A stretch of 64,000 bases of DNA from a virus. Taxonomy: Duplodnaviria; Caudoviricetes. Below the pieces are notes generated by a model. The model made no database searches. It worked only from the letters and a program-made list of their open reading frames with translations, and had not been told where the DNA came from. Location: the IMG/VR virus record IMGVR_UViG_3300044723_005784, positions 28,488-92,487 of that record, one strand, 5' to 3'. Within the stretch, counting starts at the first letter, position 1; every line of letters begins with the position of its first letter. The position numbers and the translations under genes are program-made. Below, in pieces: positions 101 to 64,000 of this stretch.

Positions 101-955
101 ATGGCAAATTTATTTGATAATTTAGGTAGCAAGATATTTAGTAGATCAACAAGAATTGTTGATGAAGGGCTAAATCGTGCTATTCCTGGTGATAATTTTA
201 TTGCAAAAAGTGCCAGGTCCATTATAGGAAGTCAAGCGGAGAGGTTACTTTCCAATGCGTTAAACCCAGGTGGTGCTAGTTCCAGGGGCAACACACAAGC
301 AAACGTAAGTTTTAATGCTGAAAATGACATACGTGCAAGACTTGCACTAAGTCCACAGAGTGGGCCATTATTTTATAAAGATGGCAGTAATCAACTTATG
401 GCACCACTTGGACAAACAGATGGTGTGGTTTGGCCATATACACCAAATATAAACGTTAGTTACAGTGCAAGTTATGCCGGACAGAACCCTAGTCACACAA
501 ACTATACACAACAGAGCTATGGAATGAGCTCAGTTGATCAAATTAGTGTTGTAGGTCAATTTACAGCAAATAACCAAGACGAAGCCAGATACTTGCTGGC
601 TACACTCTGGTTCTTAAAGAGTGCAACCAAAAGTTTTTACGGCGCCGACCAAAACAGAGGCACGCCGCCGCCGGTGCTAAGATTTAGTGCGCATGGGGTC
701 CACATGTTTAAGAGCGTGCCAGTTGTAATTACAAACACAGTACAGGATTTTGAAAGCAACGTTGACTACATCGATACACCACTGCAACCAGGCAGCGGAT
801 CAATTGGTAATATGACACGAGTGCCTACACTTATAACAATTAACGTTACACTACAGCCGGTTGTTAGTCGCAGTGCGCAACAACGATTTAGTTTGGAAAA
901 CTATGCCAAAGGTAGATTGGTTGGTGGTAGCAGAGGACTAGGAGGTACTCCATAA
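101..955 (+). CDS. Baseplate/tail-tube-like structural protein (gp48/gp54-type tube fold)
   Basis: PYTP..., GTPPPVLRF and VPVVITN motifs typical of tube-initiator proteins; first gene of the baseplate operon. Confidence 0.6.
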   Translation: MANLFDNLGSKIFSRSTRIVDEGLNRAIPGDNFIAKSARSIIGSQAERLLSNALNPGGASSRGNTQANVSFNAENDIRARLALSPQSGPLFYKDGSNQLMAPLGQTDGVVWPYTPNINVSYSASYAGQNPSHTNYTQQSYGMSSVDQISVVGQFTANNQDEARYLLATLWFLKSATKSFYGADQNRGTPPPVLRFSAHGVHMFKSVPVVITNTVQDFESNVDYIDTPLQPGSGSIGNMTRVPTLITINVTLQPVVSRSAQQRFSLENYAKGRLVGGSRGLGGTP

Positions 956-1261: not shown

Positions 1262-4114
<2,853 letters not shown>

Positions 4115-55873: not shown

Positions 55874-56228
55874 CCAAAAACCTCTGAAAGTCTCCATGTA
55901 GGGTAGCCCAAAAATATGTTTGCTCATCAAAAAGTAGTATTCTAGGCCAGCGTCCCAGCTGCACATAGTAGGGCACTCGTAATTGTTTATCCAAATCTAA
56001 TAGGAATTTGTAGTTAACCTCTATGCGACTACTATCGTCCCAGAGTTTTATATCATAAGATGTAAGGTCTAGATCATCGATAAGACACCTAAATCCCTGT
56101 TCAGTTAGACGAAGCCCGCCATCGTTCCGTATGTTTTGCCAGAAGAACACCATCTCAGTTCCGCTAGGGATTCGTGTATGCTCTATATTTTTAAGAAATA
56201 CGGCCGTGTATTGTTGCTTAGTTTTCAT
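55845..56228 (-). CDS. Hypothetical phage protein
   Basis: GGLRLTEQG motif; start at MKTK. Confidence 0.65.
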   Translation of the reverse strand: MKTKQQYTAVFLKNIEHTRIPSGTEMVFFWQNIRNDGGLRLTEQGFRCLIDDLDLTSYDIKLWDDSSRIEVNYKFLLDLDKQLRVPYYVQLGRWPRILLFDEQTYFWATLHGDFQRFLDGNKVRTKT

Positions 56229-56517
56229 TCTCTCGATATACTGTTGTTCCAGCATCAACGAGAACAACAGTAAAATCTTGAGTCTGAAATTTGTTGTTTA
56301 ACTTTTTACATAAATTAATAGCATGACCAGGATTGCTAAAACTAACCTTGTTATATTTTGGACCGGGATAGGTTGTTAGTATATTGTAGCTTTTTAAGTT
56401 AATAGGCTTATCATCGTAAAAGACACTCCATATACCTTTGCTTGCTAGAACCTGATGTGTTTTATAACAAGATTTATCTACTTTTTCTAATAGGACAGTT
56501 GGTTTAGGTCTACTCAT
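56218..56517 (-). CDS. Hypothetical phage protein (MSRPKP...FSNPGHA)
   Basis: ORF preceded by GATAAATA on the minus strand (56543-56550). Confidence 0.7.
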   Translation of the reverse strand: MSRPKPTVLLEKVDKSCYKTHQVLASKGIWSVFYDDKPINLKSYNILTTYPGPKYNKVSFSNPGHAINLCKKLNNKFQTQDFTVVLVDAGTTVYRENEN

Positions 56518-56565
56518 GTTGTTTCCAATTATATGCTAGTATTATTTATCTTAGTATATAATAGC

Positions 56566-56778
56566 TTACCAGGAATCAGACTGTATATCAACCTCAATAA
56601 CAGGGTTTTCTTGTAATTCTATGATCCTTGATTGAAGGTCTACTGTATATGCTAGTAGATTTTGGTACTCACGTACTATACCCTGTGCTTCTTGTCTCGG
56701 AATAGTTAAATTTTCTGTGTTGCTCCCAGCACATCTACTAACAAACTTTTCTAGATTACCAAAGTTAGGTCTTTTCAT
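56566..56778 (-). CDS. Hypothetical protein
   Basis: Tiles the operon. Confidence 0.55.
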   Translation of the reverse strand: MKRPNFGNLEKFVSRCAGSNTENLTIPRQEAQGIVREYQNLLAYTVDLQSRIIELQENPVIEVDIQSDSW

Positions 56779-57250
56779 TTCTGCCTGCCCTTGGATGAGC
56801 TAATCGTAGTTGCTCTTGCATCTCAAACTTTGTTTTATATGGACCTTCAAACTTATTACGTGTTAGTGTAATCAGCTTTGGGCAATAGGCTTTCATCCAA
56901 CCATTTTCAAAGTTAATGATATAGTATCCTGCACAATAAAAGCTCTGACTCTTAGGTGTTTTAGTGTATAGAGGTAGTTTACGCTTCACATCAAAGATTT
57001 CATTATGTGGATTTGTCTTACATGGATACTCATGAACGTTGAAATTGTTCTTTACGGGAACTGTTGACTCTATAAGATTATTAAAACTGATCTTCGTCTT
57101 TTCTGTAAGTGTATCCTGATCAGGAAATCTAGCATTTTTATTATTAACAGTTAACACAAAATCTTTGTCTTTGCGAAGTGTACCAACCTTTTCCCCATTT
57201 TTCTCTACAATCCAAAACTTGTCTTGTACAATAGGTTTAGCCTGTAACAT
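56765..57250 (-). CDS. Hypothetical phage protein
   Basis: LPLYTK..KS.S.YCAGYY...CPKL motif. Confidence 0.65.
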   Translation of the reverse strand: MLQAKPIVQDKFWIVEKNGEKVGTLRKDKDFVLTVNNKNARFPDQDTLTEKTKISFNNLIESTVPVKNNFNVHEYPCKTNPHNEIFDVKRKLPLYTKTPKSQSFYCAGYYIINFENGWMKAYCPKLITLTRNKFEGPYKTKFEMQEQLRLAHPRAGRNEKT

Positions 57251-58235
57251 GATATCCTCTCTGTAACCATTCTGCATATTTCGTAGCATCATCAGCAATC
57301 CTATTCAGTTCGTATTTCCCACAGAACTTTAAAAACTTAGCACCAACCATTTTGTTAGTTTTAGGCTTCATTTGACTACGCATCGTTGTATCGATGTACT
57401 CTTTAAGTTCTTCAGGTTGTGCAGTAAGATCTACAAGCGTTCTATTCCGCTCGTAGTCGTCCAACACACGGTGCTCTTCACCGTTATGATCAGTCCAGCG
57501 TTGTAGCATCATGTTATTCCAGTTAAAGCCTTTACTGTTACGATCTGCAAAAGCCTCAAGTAACCCAACTTTATTTTTAGTACCTTTTTTACGAACACCA
57601 GGGTAAGCACTAAACACATTGTCACTAGTGTCACCACGCATGCACTTTTCAAACAGCAACCATTCTGGATCTGGAGCGTCCTTTACCTCGCCTGTTTTCT
57701 TGTCTTTAACAGGCTTACCATAATCGTCTACAATACCTTCTAGTGACATCATATGATTTTGGATGCCATTGTACTGCTTGACATTGGGTGCAATAAGTTG
57801 TGCAAAGTCACTATCACTACTTACAACAACATGATTGTCTTTAGGATGCATATTAATCCAACGTGCAATAATATCATCTGCTTCAGCAATATCGCATCTT
57901 AGTACACTGCAATTAGCACTGTCCTTTAAGAATGTTGTCATATCATCATAGGTATCCCAGAACAACTGATCCTCTTCTTGCTGTTGTTCTGTGAGTGCAT
58001 CACGAGCTACTTTGCGATTCTTCTTGTAAGGCTCATAGTAGTCCTTGCGCCAGGATCTTCCTTCAAGTGCAAACACAACATGATCAGCACCAGCAATACG
58101 CCAGGCCTTGTTAACTGCACTCATAGTAACATGCATAGCAAACCCTAGTCGGGTCCATTGATCCATACCGCGATGTGCAGCATGGCGTGCTCTAAAAAAT
58201 GTATTAGCAGTATCTACTAGCAGATAAGTTGTCAT
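57237..58235 (-). CDS. rnh: T4-type RNase H / 5'-3' exonuclease (FEN/PIN fold)
   Basis: LVDTAN, SWRK..Y..YK.NR, EADDII, SSDSDF.QL, GDTSDNV. Confidence 0.88.
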   Translation of the reverse strand: MTTYLLVDTANTFFRARHAAHRGMDQWTRLGFAMHVTMSAVNKAWRIAGADHVVFALEGRSWRKDYYEPYKKNRKVARDALTEQQQEEDQLFWDTYDDMTTFLKDSANCSVLRCDIAEADDIIARWINMHPKDNHVVVSSDSDFAQLIAPNVKQYNGIQNHMMSLEGIVDDYGKPVKDKKTGEVKDAPDPEWLLFEKCMRGDTSDNVFSAYPGVRKKGTKNKVGLLEAFADRNSKGFNWNNMMLQRWTDHNGEEHRVLDDYERNRTLVDLTAQPEELKEYIDTTMRSQMKPKTNKMVGAKFLKFCGKYELNRIADDATKYAEWLQRGYHVTG

Positions 58236-58993
58236 TTAATACGCCTTGGTGTTGGGTTAATCTTACGTGGCTTTATTTTTACTATATTACTACTACTTGT
58301 GGCATTTGTCAACCTAGGCAGGAGATATTTTGCCCATGCATTATGTGCATCTTCTCCATAATGGTACCCGTTGTTAACTGTTTTGAAGCCTTGGGCCTCG
58401 CACCAATGCCAGTATGTGCCTGCTTGTGTATACGGGTCTAGATAACAATTGTCCCAGTCTACTTGCTCTTCTATATTTCCAAAATGGTTATAACTATTAA
58501 AGAAAAGGTGTTTAATTTCTTTTTCTTGCAGGAAGGTATGTAGATTATATAATGCTGTATGCCATTGCTGTTCTTTTTCTATAAGCACTTCTATTGTTTG
58601 ATCTATTACCCATTTTTTATAATAGTCCTGCAAAGACTCTGGTAACTGATCAGTTCCGCTTGCTGTTACTTGGAATGTTTGATCTTCGTGTTTCCACTCT
58701 TCACGTTCCCATGTACTCCAACCAATAATAATAAAATTTTGACTAGCGTGTCTTTGATCTAAAAAATCACGGGTAGTGCGTAAAATGCGATGATTACTAC
58801 TTGCACTAATTGCATCGCAGTTATATCCAGCATTAAGAATCTTTGCTAGTTTATATCCAAAACTTTTGGTTAAACATCCAGGATGAGCCAGTTCTCCCAT
58901 GTGTTTTAGGCCAGGATCATCACTTGCAAAGCAATAGTCCGCGACGAGTTCTGCACCAGCAGTATGGCTATCACCATTAAAATATAACTTCAT
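58232..58993 (-). CDS. SGNH-hydrolase-like protein
   Basis: FNGDSHTAG, SN.RI.R, H...AH. Confidence 0.6.
   Translation of the reverse strand: MKLYFNGDSHTAGAELVADYCFASDDPGLKHMGELAHPGCLTKSFGYKLAKILNAGYNCDAISASSNHRILRTTRDFLDQRHASQNFIIIGWSTWEREEWKHEDQTFQVTASGTDQLPESLQDYYKKWVIDQTIEVLIEKEQQWHTALYNLHTFLQEKEIKHLFFNSYNHFGNIEEQVDWDNCYLDPYTQAGTYWHWCEAQGFKTVNNGYHYGEDAHNAWAKYLLPRLTNATSSSNIVKIKPRKINPTPRRIK
58284..58312 (-). promoter_or_regulatory. Sigma70-like promoter TTGACA-17-TAATAT upstream of rnh
   Basis: Lies inside the 3' end of the upstream gene. Confidence 0.45.
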
Positions 58994-58995
58994 TA

Positions 58996-59367
58996 TTATC
59001 TATATTCTGTGCGGCCGTCACCTAAATCATTTTTGGTGACCATTGCCTGGTCATTTTCGTAACTTTCTAATACAACGTGTCTACAAACATCTTGGAACCA
59101 ACGATCAACTATATCGTTTTCATCATCGTCTTTGTATCCTGCACTCCATAATTTTTTAATAAAGTGTTCATTCCAATCAAGTTCAAACGCACCATTACCT
59201 GGATTATCTGGATCAACTTCTACTTTTAAAACACCAACCCAGGCTTCACCTGCTTCTGTAGCAATTTCTTTTTCAGATTTCTTCTTCTTTTTAGGCTCCG
59301 GCTTGGGCTCTACTTTCTTAGCCTGTCCCATACCCATTGCTTTTTTAGCATCATCTAACAATCCCAT
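58996..59367 (-). CDS. Hypothetical phage protein
   Basis: GAFELDWN...GY...IVDRWF motif. Confidence 0.7.
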   Translation of the reverse strand: MGLLDDAKKAMGMGQAKKVEPKPEPKKKKKSEKEIATEAGEAWVGVLKVEVDPDNPGNGAFELDWNEHFIKKLWSAGYKDDDENDIVDRWFQDVCRHVVLESYENDQAMVTKNDLGDGRTEYR

Positions 59368-59915
59368 TTTACAAATTCTCCTGTTTCTATTTCCCAGTCA
59401 CGTACTGATTCAGCAGTATTTTTTCCAAGCACTACACTTGCTGCTCTAATTGTATTGCCGTGACATACAATAATATGAGGTAGACTAGGGGAGTCTTCTA
59501 GTCCGTTTATAAATGTGGCAACTCTCGAAGCACATTCTTTAAGACTTTCGCCATCTTCTGGTTTGTTATTCCAGCCTCGTCTAATATTTAAAAATTCTTT
59601 TTCACCTAGTTCATTAACAAGATCTTCTTTATTGCGTCCACTCCAGATTCCATAGTCTCTCTCACGGATTAGCGCATTTATTTTAAGATCCTTAAACCAG
59701 GGCGTATTATCAAGAATAATCTTTGCTGTGTAAAAACTTCTACGTAAGTCACTACAATGGATTTCTGCAATAAACTGATATTTATTTGCTAGTTCTGTAG
59801 CAGTAGTCATTGCCTGCTCAATACCAAGTTGGGTAAGATCTGGATCATGCCAGCCTGTGCTACGATTTTCTTCGTTGTATTCTGACTGGCCGTGACGTAC
59901 CCAAACTGTTTTCAT
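59355..59915 (-). CDS. Histidine phosphatase / phosphoglycerate-mutase family
   Basis: RHGQS, SDL.R, ERDYG, GESL, CHGN. Confidence 0.88.
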   Translation of the reverse strand: MKTVWVRHGQSEYNEENRSTGWHDPDLTQLGIEQAMTTATELANKYQFIAEIHCSDLRRSFYTAKIILDNTPWFKDLKINALIRERDYGIWSGRNKEDLVNELGEKEFLNIRRGWNNKPEDGESLKECASRVATFINGLEDSPSLPHIIVCHGNTIRAASVVLGKNTAESVRDWEIETGEFVKWDC

Positions 59916-59948
59916 ACTGCGCCTGCTTTACGAAATCTATCTTCCTGA

Positions 59949-60812
59949 TCAAGTTCCCCAGGCGTTACCGAAGACGTCGACGTGGAGTCGAGGGCTATAT
60001 CTGTAGCCTTTTTCGAGGGCGAGCTCTGCGACTTGACGACCGTTTTTGAAGTAACTGTCTGTCGTACCGCCAACAGGCATGAGGTAAACCGGCGCTTCAA
60101 GTCCCGCAGATCTATATTCTGCAACAGCTCTATCAACTTCTGCCACGTCAACATCATCAGAAACAACGAACTTAAGATACAAGTGGCTGTTAGGAACACT
60201 AGCGTACTTAACAGCAACATCAGGCTTGATAGCATCAACCCAGGTATGTCCACTAACCGATAGTTTAGGGGAACAAGAGAATGTAATGTGTACCTGTTGA
60301 TTATCTGTGAGGTACGTTTTGAAATCCTCTGACAGAGATTGTGTAGTATTGGTTTCGAACGTGACATTCTTCAAGTCCTTCATGCGTGGATGTTCTAGCA
60401 ACTGTATATATGCTCGTTGCCAACCTAATAGAGGCTCACCGCCTGTGATTACCAAATGGATATCCTGACCATTATCCAATGACCATGCGCCTGTTGGTGT
60501 AAGTGCAAGTAGATCATCAACTAGCTGATCAATGTCTACATCATGTTGAAAACGTTTGAATGCAGGGTGCCAAGCAGCATAGCTATCGCACCCTACAGTC
60601 ACAAGTGGGAGATCCTCAAGTGTATCATAGTTATCGATCTCATCTACAATCTTTTGGATCTGAGGCTCTGCTGTTTCGTCACTGTTCCTAGCAATACCAA
60701 ACTTAGGACAAGTAAAGTTACAACCATACATACGAAGGAATACACTAGGCACACCTGTCCAGCGACCTTCTCCTTGTACACTATAAAATGCTTCTGTGTA
60801 TCTAACTTTCAT
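59949..60812 (-). CDS. queE: 7-carboxy-7-deazaguanine synthase (radical SAM)
   Basis: FYSVQGEG..TGVPSVFLR..GCN..C...CDS, TGGEP, ETN, SPKL, SPRLH. Confidence 0.88.
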   Translation of the reverse strand: MKVRYTEAFYSVQGEGRWTGVPSVFLRMYGCNFTCPKFGIARNSDETAEPQIQKIVDEIDNYDTLEDLPLVTVGCDSYAAWHPAFKRFQHDVDIDQLVDDLLALTPTGAWSLDNGQDIHLVITGGEPLLGWQRAYIQLLEHPRMKDLKNVTFETNTTQSLSEDFKTYLTDNQQVHITFSCSPKLSVSGHTWVDAIKPDVAVKYASVPNSHLYLKFVVSDDVDVAEVDRAVAEYRSAGLEAPVYLMPVGGTTDSYFKNGRQVAELALEKGYRYSPRLHVDVFGNAWGT

Positions 60813-60821
60813 TGACGCCTC

Positions 60822-61010
60822 TTAATCTACAATAATGTTTTTCTTTAGTTCGTTGATCATCTTAGCCTTTGTAAGACGACGATCAAGGTTAATACCATGA
60901 TCTGCTGCCCAGTCATCAACTTGCTTCTTTGTCATCTTGTTAAGCTCAGCTTCTGTAATAACAGCAGGTGTGTCTCCAACTCCTAGCCATTTCATAATGC
61001 ATTTAAACAT
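60822..61010 (-). CDS. Small protein with Rho-N/HeH-like motif
   Basis: LNKMTKKQV...GINLDRRLTKAKMI. Confidence 0.55.
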   Translation of the reverse strand: MFKCIMKWLGVGDTPAVITEAELNKMTKKQVDDWAADHGINLDRRLTKAKMINELKKNIIVD

Positions 61011-61476
61011 CGAATTCTCCATCTTCTCTGTGACCAACTCGCATAGCCATATTTGAGTCAGTTTCTCTTACCTCAACCTTACAGCACCATACCCTAGTGC
61101 CAGGTTCCCAACTAGGTAAAAATATTGTGTTTACGTATTCATACAAAAAGTCTGACAGACCTTCACATCCAGTCTTTTCAACTTCTGTAATCTTTGCTAG
61201 GCCTTTCTTGCCTAGTTCTAGTAGCGTGTCGCGGTCTGGATCATCCTGTGCTACTAGCAGAGTGTGATCAAACCAATCTTCTAAGCTGTCCTTTAGTGGA
61301 CGTAATCCACCAAAGTCTACTACCCAGTTACGAGCATCTAGGTCATCAGTTTCAAATTCAAAATGGAAACTTAATGCATATCCGTGGATAAGATTGCAGT
61401 GTGAATCTGCTCTCCACTGTCTGTATGCTACTGGACCTAAATGCCTGTATGTTTTTGTACTAATATATTTTGCCAT
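61003..61476 (-). CDS. queD: 6-carboxy-5,6,7,8-tetrahydropterin synthase
   Basis: HCNLIHGY, VVDFGGL, FDHT, EVRET. Confidence 0.88.
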   Translation of the reverse strand: MAKYISTKTYRHLGPVAYRQWRADSHCNLIHGYALSFHFEFETDDLDARNWVVDFGGLRPLKDSLEDWFDHTLLVAQDDPDRDTLLELGKKGLAKITEVEKTGCEGLSDFLYEYVNTIFLPSWEPGTRVWCCKVEVRETDSNMAMRVGHREDGEFDV

Positions 61477-61483
61477 GTTTATA

Positions 61484-61543
61484 CTCCTTGGTTATAGAGT
61501 GCGCGGAATATTTAAAGAGGGTCGAACACCTTAGTCCTCTATA
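61484..61543 (-). ncRNA. Candidate preQ1-I-like riboswitch/pseudoknot leader of queD
   Basis: AGAGG/CCUCU stem, AU-rich tail, loop-tail pairing, alternative stem, next to the SD. Confidence 0.4.
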
Positions 61544-61548
61544 GTAGT

Positions 61549-61577
61549 ATTGTAAGATATTTATGATAGCGTGTCAA
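61549..61577 (-). promoter_or_regulatory. Sigma70 promoter TTGACA-17-TACAAT with an embedded CATAAATA
   Basis: Upstream of the queD leader. Confidence 0.7.
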
Positions 61578-62146
61578 CTTTTATTTAAACGTGCCTTGAG
61601 TGCGTCCGTCTGCACTGCTTGGAAAGCAATAATACTACGCATCTCTTTACAACGTCGTTGTGGACCTGAACCAATGTGTAGAACGCTAGCATCAAATGTA
61701 ATTAGTTTTCGTGGTTCGTATTCACTTGCACCGTATTCATCGCCTTGCTTGAATTGTGTGCTACCGCCCCAATTGGTATCCCATTCTTTATCCGTATAGA
61801 GAACACCGGTAATACTTTGTTCTGGTACAGGCCAATCAGTATGGAAATCTCCATCTATACCAAATGTGTTTGAACTAGCCATACAGCGTACAAGCATATA
61901 ATCATCTGGTACCATATCCATGAAACGGTCAGCTAGTGTTTTAACAAGCTCTGGGCAATCTTCTTTAAAGTCCCAGTTTTGATGCGTGTAGAAGTTTTGA
62001 AACCAACAAGGATAATTAGGTTCTATATTACTATCGCTAGTTTGTCCAAAGCGCCACTTTGGAGCATATACCACGTCTGCAAGGAGTTCCACATGTTCAT
62101 TTTCTGAAATCCATTCTTTATGTGTATCAAATAAGACCACGTGCAT
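61574..62146 (-). CDS. 2OG-Fe(II) oxygenase (prolyl-hydroxylase-like)
   Basis: HTD, LY...W...WGG.T.F, H...P, R. Confidence 0.8.
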   Translation of the reverse strand: MHVVLFDTHKEWISENEHVELLADVVYAPKWRFGQTSDSNIEPNYPCWFQNFYTHQNWDFKEDCPELVKTLADRFMDMVPDDYMLVRCMASSNTFGIDGDFHTDWPVPEQSITGVLYTDKEWDTNWGGSTQFKQGDEYGASEYEPRKLITFDASVLHIGSGPQRRCKEMRSIIAFQAVQTDALKARLNKS

Positions 62147-62489
62147 AACTCCAAATAGCAACATATGTTAACATATGTAATAGTTGATCAAAACCAAACA
62201 ATATCCAATACTGCGGATGTGCTGTTGTTAGTTTCATAATACGCGATACTAGTTCTTTACAATAATCAATAGTGTAGTGTACGGCGAAATCAGCTAACCC
62301 AACAAATAGAGCAAAAGGCCAACCAATAAAATAATAACAAATAACAAATGTAAAGACACCGTGTATAGCTGCATGGATCAGTCCACCTAGACCGAATAGT
62401 TTACTTTTTGCCTGGATCATCCACGGAGTTTGTAAACAGAAGTCGCTGAGCCAATGCTTAACTAGCAGTGCTATTAAGAGTTCAATCAT
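62127..62489 (-). CDS. DUF3307-like membrane protein
   Basis: H..DF.LQ, HA.IH, HY.ID..K, DQ.LH. Confidence 0.75.
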   Translation of the reverse strand: MIELLIALLVKHWLSDFCLQTPWMIQAKSKLFGLGGLIHAAIHGVFTFVICYYFIGWPFALFVGLADFAVHYTIDYCKELVSRIMKLTTAHPQYWILFGFDQLLHMLTYVAIWSYARGLI

Positions 62490-63001
62490 CACCACCACTC
62501 CTCATAGGGGAATACGACCCATGTATCTTCTTCAGCTTTGTTAATTTCAATGCTTGTATAATCGATGTTAAATGGACTTGCTAGATTGTTTACGATAGTT
62601 GCAAAGCGAACATTCTGATTCCAAACTTTATCCCATCGATGTTCATTTGGATGACAGCCTGACGGCCAATCTTCTTTGATCCATTGGAATGTAGCACCAC
62701 TATCGTTAATATCGTCTAGGATAAGAATTTTCTTATCTTCATATGTGCCACCCATTTGGAAAATACCAAAGGCATCTTCTGCCATCCAGCAATTAGATTC
62801 CTGTTCATTGCCATTACGCAAACGAACATCCAGTGTGTGCATTTTAATACCTGTAAGATGACTCATTAGAACAGCAGGAATTAATCCACCTCTGGTAATA
62901 CCTACAATATAATCGGGCCGCCAGTTGTCAGCATACATTTGCTTTATAACGTTATGTACACCCTTTTCAATATCTCGATTAGACAGATATAGTTTGTTCA
63001 T
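62489..63001 (-). CDS. Type I phosphoribosyltransferase (xanthine/guanine PRT-like)
   Basis: GITRGGLIPA, ILILDDINDSGAT, WVVFPYE. Confidence 0.88.
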   Translation of the reverse strand: MNKLYLSNRDIEKGVHNVIKQMYADNWRPDYIVGITRGGLIPAVLMSHLTGIKMHTLDVRLRNGNEQESNCWMAEDAFGIFQMGGTYEDKKILILDDINDSGATFQWIKEDWPSGCHPNEHRWDKVWNQNVRFATIVNNLASPFNIDYTSIEINKAEEDTWVVFPYEEWW

Positions 63002-63416
63002 CTCTTACCTTCTGCTTTCGCCATTCAAAATACTTTTCATTGTGCATCCATTTGCCGTTGACAATGAAACCCCACTCACGTAGTTTAGGACCAGGAACGA
63101 ATAGTGACCAAGCACATACTCCTGGTTCTAGTTCTACACGATGCAGACTCTTAGGACCGCTAAAACGCATGTGTCCTGGTCCACGCCAGAAACATCCTTT
63201 AGGAGTAGTCTCCCAATAACCTCCACGTAAGATTAGCGTGAAGTAGGGCCAGGGATGATCGTGTAGTTCATCCGGATCGCTTTGTAAAAACTTGTGTAAG
63301 AATACGTTAAATGGAAACCATTTACGATCTTTTAGAAACATGTAATACCTAACCAAGTAGGGCTTCTGCCCAATGCGATCTAGGATTACACGTTTCCTAT
63401 CTTTGAACATATTCAT
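62979..63416 (-). CDS. Cupin-like protein
   Basis: LHDHPW..ILRGGYWE...HRV...WGF. Confidence 0.65.
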   Translation of the reverse strand: MNMFKDRKRVILDRIGQKPYLVRYYMFLKDRKWFPFNVFLHKFLQSDPDELHDHPWPYFTLILRGGYWETTPKGCFWRGPGHMRFSGPKSLHRVELEPGVCAWSLFVPGPKLREWGFIVNGKWMHNEKYFEWRKQKVRDEQTISV

Positions 63417-63871
63417 AAACTGTATTCGTAGTTATCAGTTGCAGTATTGTTCTGCAAAGTAACTGCTCCATTGTTTAAGTGAAACCTACGTGCCATATCC
63501 GTTTTTGGACTTAGTGTAATAAGACGTTTGACTTTAGCATTTGCACGACATTCATCTAGCAACCGAAAAACAACGTCTCTGCCAGCACGTGGCGCACGAC
63601 TCCAAACTGTATATGCTACGCAAATAGAACCGTGTTGATCTTCCTGACAAGCAGCCTGACTCATAAGGTCAAGTTCCTTTACAGTAGTTGGTACTTCATT
63701 AGTATAGGCAACGCAAATTGCTGCCTGATACTTACCGTCCGTTTCCAACACATAAACCCGACGACCCGGGCCCAACCTAAAGTCTAGGTCAAGCTCGGGT
63801 CTCACGGGGTCGTGGTTGGTATCAAACTGTAGTGCTTCTACATTTTCATATGTCAGCGTAGTTAGGTTCAA
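63413..63871 (-). CDS. GNAT-like fold hypothetical protein
   Basis: YTVWS...GR, TLSP.T.MA.RFHL.NGA. Confidence 0.55.
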   Translation of the reverse strand: MNLTTLTYENVEALQFDTNHDPVRPELDLDFRLGPGRRVYVLETDGKYQAAICVAYTNEVPTTVKELDLMSQAACQEDQHGSICVAYTVWSRAPRAGRDVVFRLLDECRANAKVKRLITLSPKTDMARRFHLNNGAVTLQNNTATDNYEYSL

Positions 63872-63883
63872 TACCTTTTCTCC

Positions 63884-64000
63884 TTAGAACTTCAAGTTCA
63901 CTTTCATGCCTAGGTTAACTTCATTGTTACCTGAGACACCTGCAACATTGCTACGATGCTCTGCATAGCCAGCAAGTGCAACATTGTTTACATTATATTT
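63884..64000 (-). CDS. 3' end (partial) of a probable outer-membrane beta-barrel protein
   Basis: Reads ...NEVNLGMKVNLKF-stop: amphipathic strand with terminal Phe. Confidence 0.45.
   Translation of the reverse strand, partial: KYNVNNVALAGYAEHRSNVAGVSGNNEVNLGMKVNLKF

Follow-up and report, generated by a model that had tools for sequence, protein, structure and literature searches.

Results

The queD locus and its leader

The leader of a queD-like gene was analysed in a stretch of 64,000 nucleotides (referred to below as the window), which is part of the IMG/VR virus record IMGVR_UViG_3300044723_005784. The record comprises 92 kb and is rated 26% complete; all coordinates of the leader and of the queD region are those of the minus strand of the window. 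Judged by the comparison of its homologues, the leader element is real, conserved and structured, with hundreds of sequences from uncultured phages retaining it by compensatory base changes, and it was considered probable that it constitutes the aptamer and the expression platform of a translational ON riboswitch of a new class, which has so far been found in phages only. The regulated gene would be the one that begins with the ATG at 61476 (61476-61003) and encodes a 157-aa protein of the QueD/PTPS family. This product scored 53.7 bits against PF01242 (cut-off 22.4) and 32.7 bits against TIGR03367, the latter being under the cut-off of 89.25. The gene is followed by a 71-aa open reading frame (ORF; 61037-60822), which shares 35 nt at its 5' end with the 3' end of queD and gave no match in Pfam or NCBIfam, and by a QueE-like radical-SAM gene of 287 aa (60812-59949) that is probably co-transcribed with queD. 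The N-terminal matches of the 287-aa protein to five QueE models reached 36.6-44.8 bits, under cut-offs of 200-300, and its sole matches in the PDB were the QueE structures 6nhl and 4njg (E 2e-5 and 2e-4, respectively). A first-pass annotation, made from the sequence alone, had proposed a riboswitch-like leader in front of phage queD-queE at this place. The queD part of that label was confirmed by the PF01242 score; the queE part is tentative, as the match covers approximately 35-60 N-terminal residues and stays below the cut-offs.

Upstream of queD, the Shine-Dalgarno (SD) sequence AAGGAG was located at 61489-61484. A promoter-like site with 11 of 12 matches lies further upstream and is composed of the -35 hexamer TTGACA (61577-61572), a 17-nt spacer and the -10 hexamer TACAAT (61554-61549). 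The -35 hexamer is overlapped by the TGA stop codon (61576-61574) of the preceding ORF, the product of which resembles 2OG-Fe(II) oxygenases (62164-61574). The site was the top-scoring one of 19 promoter-like sites in 56000-64000, a number that was not above the shuffle expectation of 22.7. Transcription would start at about 61543-61541, directly 5' of the first helix of the leader.

The leader (61540-61496) reads AGAGG-ACU-AAGGUGUUCG-AC-CCUCU-UUAAAUAUUC-CGCGCACUCU and can be drawn as an H-type pseudoknot with two helices (P1 and P2) and three loops (L1, L2 and L3). P1 is formed by AGAGG (61540-61536) and CCUCU (61520-61516). L1 begins with ACU (61535-61533) and is followed by the 5' strand of P2, AAGGUGUUCG (61532-61523), in which the variable GGUGU (61530-61526) pairs with GCACU (61502-61498), U61525 is an invariant mismatched base, and C61524 and G61523 belong to two inner pairs. 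L2 consists of an A and the invariant C61521 (61522-61521), and it lies at the P1/P2 junction directly 5' of the P1 3' strand. The AU-rich tail UUAAAUAUUC (61515-61506) makes up L3. The 3' strand of P2, CGCGCACUCU (61505-61496), contributes C61505 and G61504 to the inner pairs and C61503 to the invariant mismatch, and contains the variable GCACU. The 5-bp AGAGG/CCUCU stem, the C in front of its 3' strand, the AU-rich tail and the promoter hexamers had all been described in the first-pass annotation, and each of them was found as described.

Covariation and the refined structure

Relatives of the QueD-like protein were searched for in IMG/VR, where 421 places were confirmed and 80 were kept. 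The upstream regions of many of these relatives carried the same leader with both helix strands changed. A viral scan with a pattern that named the P1 3' strand and the tail (CCCTCT...TCYGC) gave at least 117 further stretches. From the window and these loci, 108 distinct copies were collected by a regular expression that required P1 and the tail but not P2, and they were aligned with MAFFT.

In the 108 copies, P1 and a 7-bp P2 were paired in 86.7% of the alignment cells, compared with 66.9% in shuffles, and the covariation score of 0.478 (0.123 in shuffles) was reached by 0 of 500 shuffles. The score was 0.04-0.20 when the 3' partners were slid by 1-3 columns. Both P1 and P2 covary among the phage queD leaders, and the GGUGU/GCACU pairing that had been predicted to close the pseudoknot is the one that covaries across the homologues. 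The four core pairs of P2 (columns 18-50 to 21-47) were 88-99% paired, with 5-6 standard pair types each, and 39 of the 49 distinct P2 core combinations kept at least 4 of 5 pairs, versus 21% of 2240 non-cognate combinations. When all columns were compared with one another by mutual information, exactly these P2 pairs and the P1 pair 5-30 ranked at the top.

The alignment also revealed features of P2 beyond the initial description. The inner pair 23-45 was C-G in 107 of the 108 copies, the inner pair 24-44 was A-U in 66, G-C in 41 and neither in 1, and position 22/46, which lies between the inner pairs and the variable helix, was a U.C mismatch in 107 of the 108. A register of P2 placed 3 nt earlier in the CCGCU group was considered and rejected; the common register, which is compatible with every group of the alignment, was kept.

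P1 was 96.3% paired in the same copies. Pairs 4-31, 6-29 and 7-28 were always paired, with G7-C28 as the closing pair in 108 of 108, and pair 5-30 was A-U in 95 copies and C-G in 13. The L3 base in column 37 was A whenever pair 5-30 was A-U (95 copies) and was not A when the pair was C-G (13 copies); such tracking, seen in one lineage, fits an L3 lying in the groove of P1. Because P1 pairing had been required in the first set, a separate viral scan was made in which the alternative 3' strand CCCGCT and the tail were named and the 5' strand was left unnamed. It returned at least 120 stretches, 112 of them unique. GCGG stood upstream in 110 of the 112 listed unique stretches (109 as AGCGG), and the other two were a chance match and a copy ended by the contig end.

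The refined element thus comprises a P1 of 5 bp with an invariant G-C closing pair and a P2 of 6-10 bp, the fixed inner pairs and the U.C mismatch included. L1 has one variable base (A in 81, U in 21 and C in 6 copies), an invariant C and U (108 of 108) and then 0-7 variable bases. L2 has 2-3 nt, the last of which is the invariant C directly 5' of the P1 3' strand (C61521 in the window; 108 of 108), preceded by U in 52, A in 38 and C in 18 copies. L3 is 10 nt long, holds three A that never vary and ends with an invariant UC. The unpaired positions that are invariant in the three loops therefore cluster around the P1/P2 junction.

The position of the promoter was kept in homologues as well. A sigma-70-like site ending 3-14 nt 5' of P1 was found in 47 of the 108 homologous leaders, as opposed to 7 of 419 control positions, which implies that in many lineages the aptamer would be the very 5' end of the mRNA. 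In other lineages it is located inside an operon.

Six RNA-library runs contained part of the stretch. Contigs of two runs covered queD and extended into the leader as far as 61501 and 61528, respectively, and in the four runs examined there was no contig over 61548-61581. Such contigs cannot place transcript ends and the libraries may contain DNA, hence neither the cover nor the gap was counted as evidence.

Distribution and association with queD

A covariance model was built on the P2 pairs (47 model positions, two helices), and a score of at least 37 bits was taken as a full match. The window held one copy (59.8 bits, E 5e-11; the next best match had 13.5 bits), which was also the only one in the entire 92-kb record, and one was present in each of five motif-bearing contigs of 190-283 kb, two of which are rated complete. 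The 80 QueD-homology loci gave 47 full-length matches and one more that was cut by a contig end. The motif was lacking in 32 of the 80, which were close QueD homologues (80-90% identical; for example L023, L028, L035 and L044) with queD directly after the upstream gene. The element has been gained or lost repeatedly.

The first ORF downstream of the motif was QueD-like in 104 of the 108 copies of the first set. In three of the four exceptions, queD came after a short ORF (58 aa in two copies, 88 aa in one), and in the fourth the ORF encoded a PTPS-like protein of 306 aa. In the second set, collected with CCCGCU, the first ORF was QueD-like in 104 of 110 copies; four more had queD 346-934 nt downstream, and the two remaining copies had too little downstream DNA.

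A cellular scan was made with the same pattern in one genome per prokaryotic species and gave at least 120 matches, which was approximately the chance expectation for 596 billion bases. By the regular expression, the full motif was present in 108 of the 117 viral CCCUCU-pattern loci listed versus 10 of the 120 cellular matches listed. By the covariance model, a single full motif remained among those 120 (53.4 bits, next best 28.7). It lies at 2019-2070 (-) of a 31.9-kb contig (L303) from a marine metagenome-assembled genome labelled Rickettsiales. Small ORFs on one strand are densely packed in this contig, and the viral contig L184 has an identical motif. The contig probably stems from a phage and was binned with the genome, or represents a prophage, and it may offer a hint of the host. 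No motif was found in cultured phages by blastn with three motif-plus-gene queries, and the five cultured phages taken from a QueD tblastn list (ACP17, X1, BUDD, Phosso and Moby), whose QueD proteins are 72-41% identical to that of the window, showed no leader motif (best covariance-model score 9.1 bits). In what was searched, the motif appears to be confined to phages so far.

The gene content of the motif-bearing phages was compared as well. The 92-kb record gave no QueC, FolE or TGT match. In the five large motif-bearing contigs (those that hold the loci L125, L133, L176, L194 and L198), FolE and a homologue of the 287-aa QueE-like protein were present in all five, a TGT-family gene in none, and a QueC-like gene in one, with a weak match. 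In the contig of L125, the queD gene with the motif lies approximately 72 kb from queE and folE, and the control would therefore be specific to queD. Such specificity would favour the substrate or an intermediate of the pathway as the inducer.

Expression platform

In every major lineage, the P2 3' strand was also complementary to the translation start region, the start codon being located 17-45 nt downstream of L3. In the window and its relatives, AC(A/G)CUC(C/U) pairs with the GGAGU of the SD. In the CCGCU group, a hairpin is begun by UGCCUAUG and has CAUAGGA(G) as its other arm. In the AAGUC, GUGUC and AUGCC groups, the P2 3' strand and the AUC that follows it pair with GAUG(A/G)C at the start codon, with up to 8 perfect pairs in the AAGUC group. 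In CCGCU-type copies (for example L059, 2976-3010), it was also observed that the loop of the CCUAUG...CAUAGG hairpin is often CUAUAAU, which in DNA is a perfect -10-like hexamer.

In the window itself, ACUCU (61500-61496) of the P2 3' strand doubles as an anti-SD, complementary to GGAGU (61487-61483). In the knot-free fold, the L3 segment AUAUUCC, with C61505 included (61511-61505), can pair with GGAGUAU of the SD region (61487-61481), and both ACUCU and this segment can cover the SD. The first-pass annotation had pointed to another helix beside the SD, UAUAGAG (61543-61537) with CUCUAUA (61499-61493), as the mutually exclusive alternative. This helix can form in the window, but at least 6 contiguous pairs of it were present in 9 of the 108 copies only, and it was discarded as a conserved switch helix; the conserved alternative is the pairing of the P2 3' strand or L3 with the SD or the start codon. 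At position 61496, the contigs of two RNA-library runs carried C for U (RNA strand), which gives ACUCC as in most relatives. ACUCC pairs perfectly with GGAGU, while the U of the window gives a weaker G.U anti-SD pair and creates the UAUAGAG/CUCUAUA helix.

The duplexes of the P2 3' strand with the start region had mean energies of -7.47 kcal/mol for cognate, -6.12 kcal/mol for non-cognate and -4.78 kcal/mol for shuffled combinations, and values of -7 kcal/mol or better were reached by 73%, 38% and 15% of them, respectively. In the modelled ensembles, the mean unpaired probability of the SD and the AUG was 0.36 without the knot and 0.64 with the aptamer locked. It was under 0.5 in 82 of the 108 copies when free and over 0.5 in 93 of the 108 when locked, and the main partner of the SD and the AUG in the knot-free ensemble was the P2 3' region. 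In these models, P2 and the helix that sequesters the ribosome site are mutually exclusive. P2 alone (mean -5.59 kcal/mol) is weaker than the sequestering helix, hence something must stabilise the knot. Since the P2 3' strand is the anti-SD or the anti-start-codon strand, formation of the knot would free the ribosome site, which corresponds to an ON design.

Comparison with known RNA families

Rfam 15 gave no match in the window at the gathering thresholds, and none in 61400-61650 (251 nt) even at E<=10. The first-pass annotation had likened the leader to preQ1-I riboswitches. The Infernal search with the preQ1 models of Rfam gave no match at the leader even at that relaxed limit, and the preQ1-I family RF00522 (cut-off 39 bits) matched the leader neither in 61400-61650 nor in a search of the full 92-kb genome, and gave no match in 13 variant loci. 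Elsewhere in the 92-kb genome, RF00522 gave three weak matches of 17, 12.3 and 8.5 bits. All three, of which the 17-bit match lies at 3029-3055 (+), look like chance, as does the 13.5-bit match of our own model at 930-954 (+). Five Rfam matches in the variant loci (snoRNA, miRNA, lncRNA and sRNA families, 19.7-23.6 bits) were rejected as chance too.

The preQ1-I riboswitches are characterized, in the available part of PMC11625349, by an H-type pseudoknot with a G-C floor atop P1, a specificity C before the P1 3' strand that is preceded by U in type I and by A in types II and III, U6 in L1, an A-rich L3 that ends with A30 and is docked in the P1 groove, and a short P2 that buries SD bases; the mechanisms described there are all gene-off. 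A type III preQ1-I riboswitch of E. coli is described in the available part of PMC10622847. The phage element resembles them as a compact H-type pseudoknot that precedes a queuosine-pathway gene, within its leader. It shares the P1 sequence and a P1 of 5 bp that closes with a conserved G-C. An invariant C likewise stands immediately 5' of the P1 3' strand, with U or A before it in 90 of the 108 copies; L3 is A-rich and could lie in the P1 groove, and the 3' tail holds a conserved C, which is a trait of type I. Other features set it apart. Its L1 has a variable base and an invariant CU after P1 instead of U or UU (U6 is absent), its 10-nt L3 ends with UC and not with A (A30 is absent), and its L2 has 2-3 nt. 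Its P2 has 6-10 bp, with the fixed C-G, the covarying R-Y pair and the U.C mismatch, compared with approximately 3-4 pairs in preQ1-I, where P2 buries SD bases or competes with an antiterminator. The knot of the phage leader does not include the SD, and its P2 3' strand serves as anti-SD or anti-AUG, which points to ON instead of OFF control; among what was searched the motif occurred in phage contigs only. The likeness to preQ1-I was therefore retained in part: by analogy, the phage leader would have a preQ1-I-type pocket in its working and is not a member of the preQ1-I family. It may be a variant with another ligand, as the first-pass annotation suggested.

The preQ1-II and preQ1-III riboswitches (RF01054 and RF02680) are also pseudoknots with a C that reads 7-deazaguanine and a link to queuosine genes, according to the available part of PMC11625349. 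They differ from the phage leader in being HLout pseudoknots of approximately 80-100 nt with extra helices (P3/P4) and in controlling queT, whereas the phage leader has two helices, and neither family had an Rfam match at the leader or in the variant loci. The SAM-II and SAM-V riboswitches of marine bacteria are compact H-type pseudoknot aptamers that control translation as OFF switches; the phage leader has other conserved bases and genes, and no Rfam match to them. The leader pseudoknot of T4 gene 32 and the RegA-type operators are phage mRNA elements that bind proteins and repress translation. Like the former, the queD leader is a 5'-terminal pseudoknot of a phage mRNA with a role in translational control; it is unlike both in following a metabolic gene and in having invariant junction bases that resemble a ligand pocket. 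The phage-encoded glutamine riboswitches (glnA RNA) of marine phages are copies of a bacterial class, as stated in the available part of PMC9004378. They have in common with the queD leader that a riboswitch, here a candidate one, regulates a phage gene in phages of aquatic bacteria; unlike them, the queD leader had no cellular counterpart among the 120 matches listed, apart from the one phage-like contig. No paper on an RNA motif upstream of phage queD was found in the main texts of the open-access literature searched.

Discussion

Proposed mechanism

The general marks of a riboswitch appear in the alignment and the folding models, namely a covarying cis aptamer in the leader of a metabolic gene and a platform pairing that excludes the aptamer. 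Of the explanations considered, we favoured a translational ON riboswitch, and regarded it as rather more than an even prospect. By analogy with the specificity cytosine of preQ1-I (available part of PMC11625349), C61521 is the candidate base for pairing with the ligand. The class is probably related to preQ1-I, and the conserved C together with the tail cytosine suggests a putative ligand with a guanine-like pairing face. Such a face is common to 7-deazaguanines, guanine and pterins.

We proposed that transcription would start from the sigma-70-like promoter a few bases 5' of P1. In the nascent RNA, P1 (AGAGG/CCUCU) would form, and the loop would then pair behind the A-rich tail to give P2 and hence the H-type pseudoknot. 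The P1/P2 junction would be lined by the invariant unpaired C61521, by CU in L1, by the final UC of L3 and by the U.C mismatch. A small ligand with a guanine-like face would dock at this junction against C61521 and lock the knot. Our best guess is that it comes from the FolE-QueD-QueE pathway, as a 7-deazaguanine or pterin intermediate; dihydroneopterin triphosphate (the substrate of QueD), CDG and preQ0 are examples. In the locked state, ACUCU of the P2 3' strand and AUAUUCC of L3 would be kept off the SD and queD would be translated; without the ligand, the same segments would pair with GGAGU(AU) and the ribosome site would be closed.

A bolder version of this proposal was put forward tentatively, and we would sooner doubt it than rely on it. 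The leader would then be the first virus-confined riboswitch class, a preQ1-I-like ON switch that senses a substrate or intermediate (dihydroneopterin triphosphate, CPH4 or CDG) of a pathway without QueC and TGT/DpdA, which possibly makes 7-deazapurine nucleotides by an undescribed route. If so, QueD would be translated only once the phage's own FolE had filled the precursor pool.

Alternative explanations

Chance complementarity, or plain conservation of a promoter-proximal leader with no structural function, was regarded as extremely improbable. It would agree with the single-sequence fold of the leader, which is ordinary (minimum free energy -10.6 kcal/mol, z +0.58; 139 of 200 shuffles fold at least as well), and with the unremarkable number of promoter-like sites. 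Folding of the single sequence was dropped as evidence either way, being not significant and blind to pseudoknots. Plain conservation does not account for compensatory changes at no fewer than six pairs with 49 distinct P2 combinations, for a P1 5' strand that switches with the 3' strand in a scan where the 5' strand was not requested, or for the full motif in 108 of 117 viral loci against 10 of 120 (regular expression) or 1 of 120 (covariance model) cellular matches among those listed.

A structured element might still be a divergent but genuine preQ1-I riboswitch that binds preQ1 or preQ0 and represses queD in a feedback manner by steric hindrance. In favour of this reading are the AGAGG/CCUCU helix with its closing G-C, the invariant C, an L3 rich in A and the link to a queuosine-pathway gene, all of which agree with the preQ1-I features in the available part of PMC11625349, and in the CGUU subgroup the knot ends 4-10 nt upstream of the SD. 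We considered it improbable, given the lack of an RF00522 match at the leader at E<=10, the absence of U6 and of the terminal A of L3, and a P2 that extends over 6-10 bp and never includes the SD. In addition, the P2 3' strand is the anti-SD or anti-AUG strand, so that the knot would open the site, and a TGT-family gene is absent from all five large motif-bearing contigs, one of which has a weak QueC-like match.

The more serious competitor is a regulatory pseudoknot that binds no metabolite, which was thought unlikely on balance, yet well ahead of the two preceding explanations. It could be a protein operator, serving autoregulation by QueD or a translational repressor of the RegA/gp32 type from the phage or the host, or it could act without any ligand as a co-transcriptional timer or a thermosensor that opens the ribosome site only transiently. 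Protein-bound pseudoknots are known in phage leaders, that of T4 gene 32 being an example, and this was counted in favour of such an element. The structure, its conservation and the exclusive pairing would fit any trans-acting stabiliser, the motif is restricted to phages, and ON logic on a biosynthetic gene is easier to understand as expression timing. On the other side, the element tracks one metabolic gene across phages with differing queD neighbourhoods, and its contexts vary: it has its own promoter (47 of 108) or lies within operons, with queD near to or far from queE and folE. The invariant unpaired junction bases, with a C placed as in preQ1-I (available part of PMC11625349), also weigh against this competitor. 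No co-varying protein partner emerged, and no search was aimed at one.

Several observations weigh against the ON riboswitch as a whole. The sequences were collected with patterns in which the tail and the P1 3' strand were predetermined, and the shuffle controls leave phylogeny uncorrected. The motif is lacking in the 32 close QueD homologues noted above, hence the element is dispensable. The contrast between cognate and non-cognate duplexes is modest, and it is confounded by relatedness and by a CAU/AUG complementarity common to many lineages. In the CGUU subgroup, a P2 of only 3-4 bp is found together with weak anti-SD pairing (-2.5 to -7.7 kcal/mol), and with the knot ending so close to the SD, steric repression could operate there. 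The ordinary fold of the single sequence belongs to the same side. An ON switch is an uncommon arrangement for a biosynthetic gene, and physiology gives no evident reason to prefer any one ligand. Finally, small-molecule binding, the identity of the molecule and its favouring of the knot are steps that we infer.

Pathway context and significance

Phage-carried riboswitches are reported to be rare, and those that are known copy bacterial classes, according to the available part of PMC9004378. If the proposed ON riboswitch is correct, a widespread class without a cellular counterpart would show that phages evolve metabolite sensors of their own, and an ON design on a preQ1-I scaffold would widen the range of this minimal fold. 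For a large group of uncultured aquatic jumbo phages, the ligand would indicate which metabolite limits 7-deazapurine synthesis in the course of infection. Genes for FolE, QueD and a QueE-like protein occur in these motif-bearing phages, without a recognisable QueC or DpdA. As the RNA is shorter than 50 nt, binding and structural tests would be direct.

The surroundings of queD in the window were also inspected. Within 59355-63416 (minus strand), the queD and queE-like genes adjoin a histidine-phosphatase-family gene (59355-59915), a DUF3307 gene (62127-62498), a phosphoribosyltransferase-domain gene (62489-63001) and the oxygenase-like gene. This neighbourhood may be comparable to deazapurine nucleoside pathways. 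Together with the lack of a QueC or TGT match in the record, these neighbours make the locus look more like a nucleotide-level 7-deazapurine route than like base exchange by DpdA.

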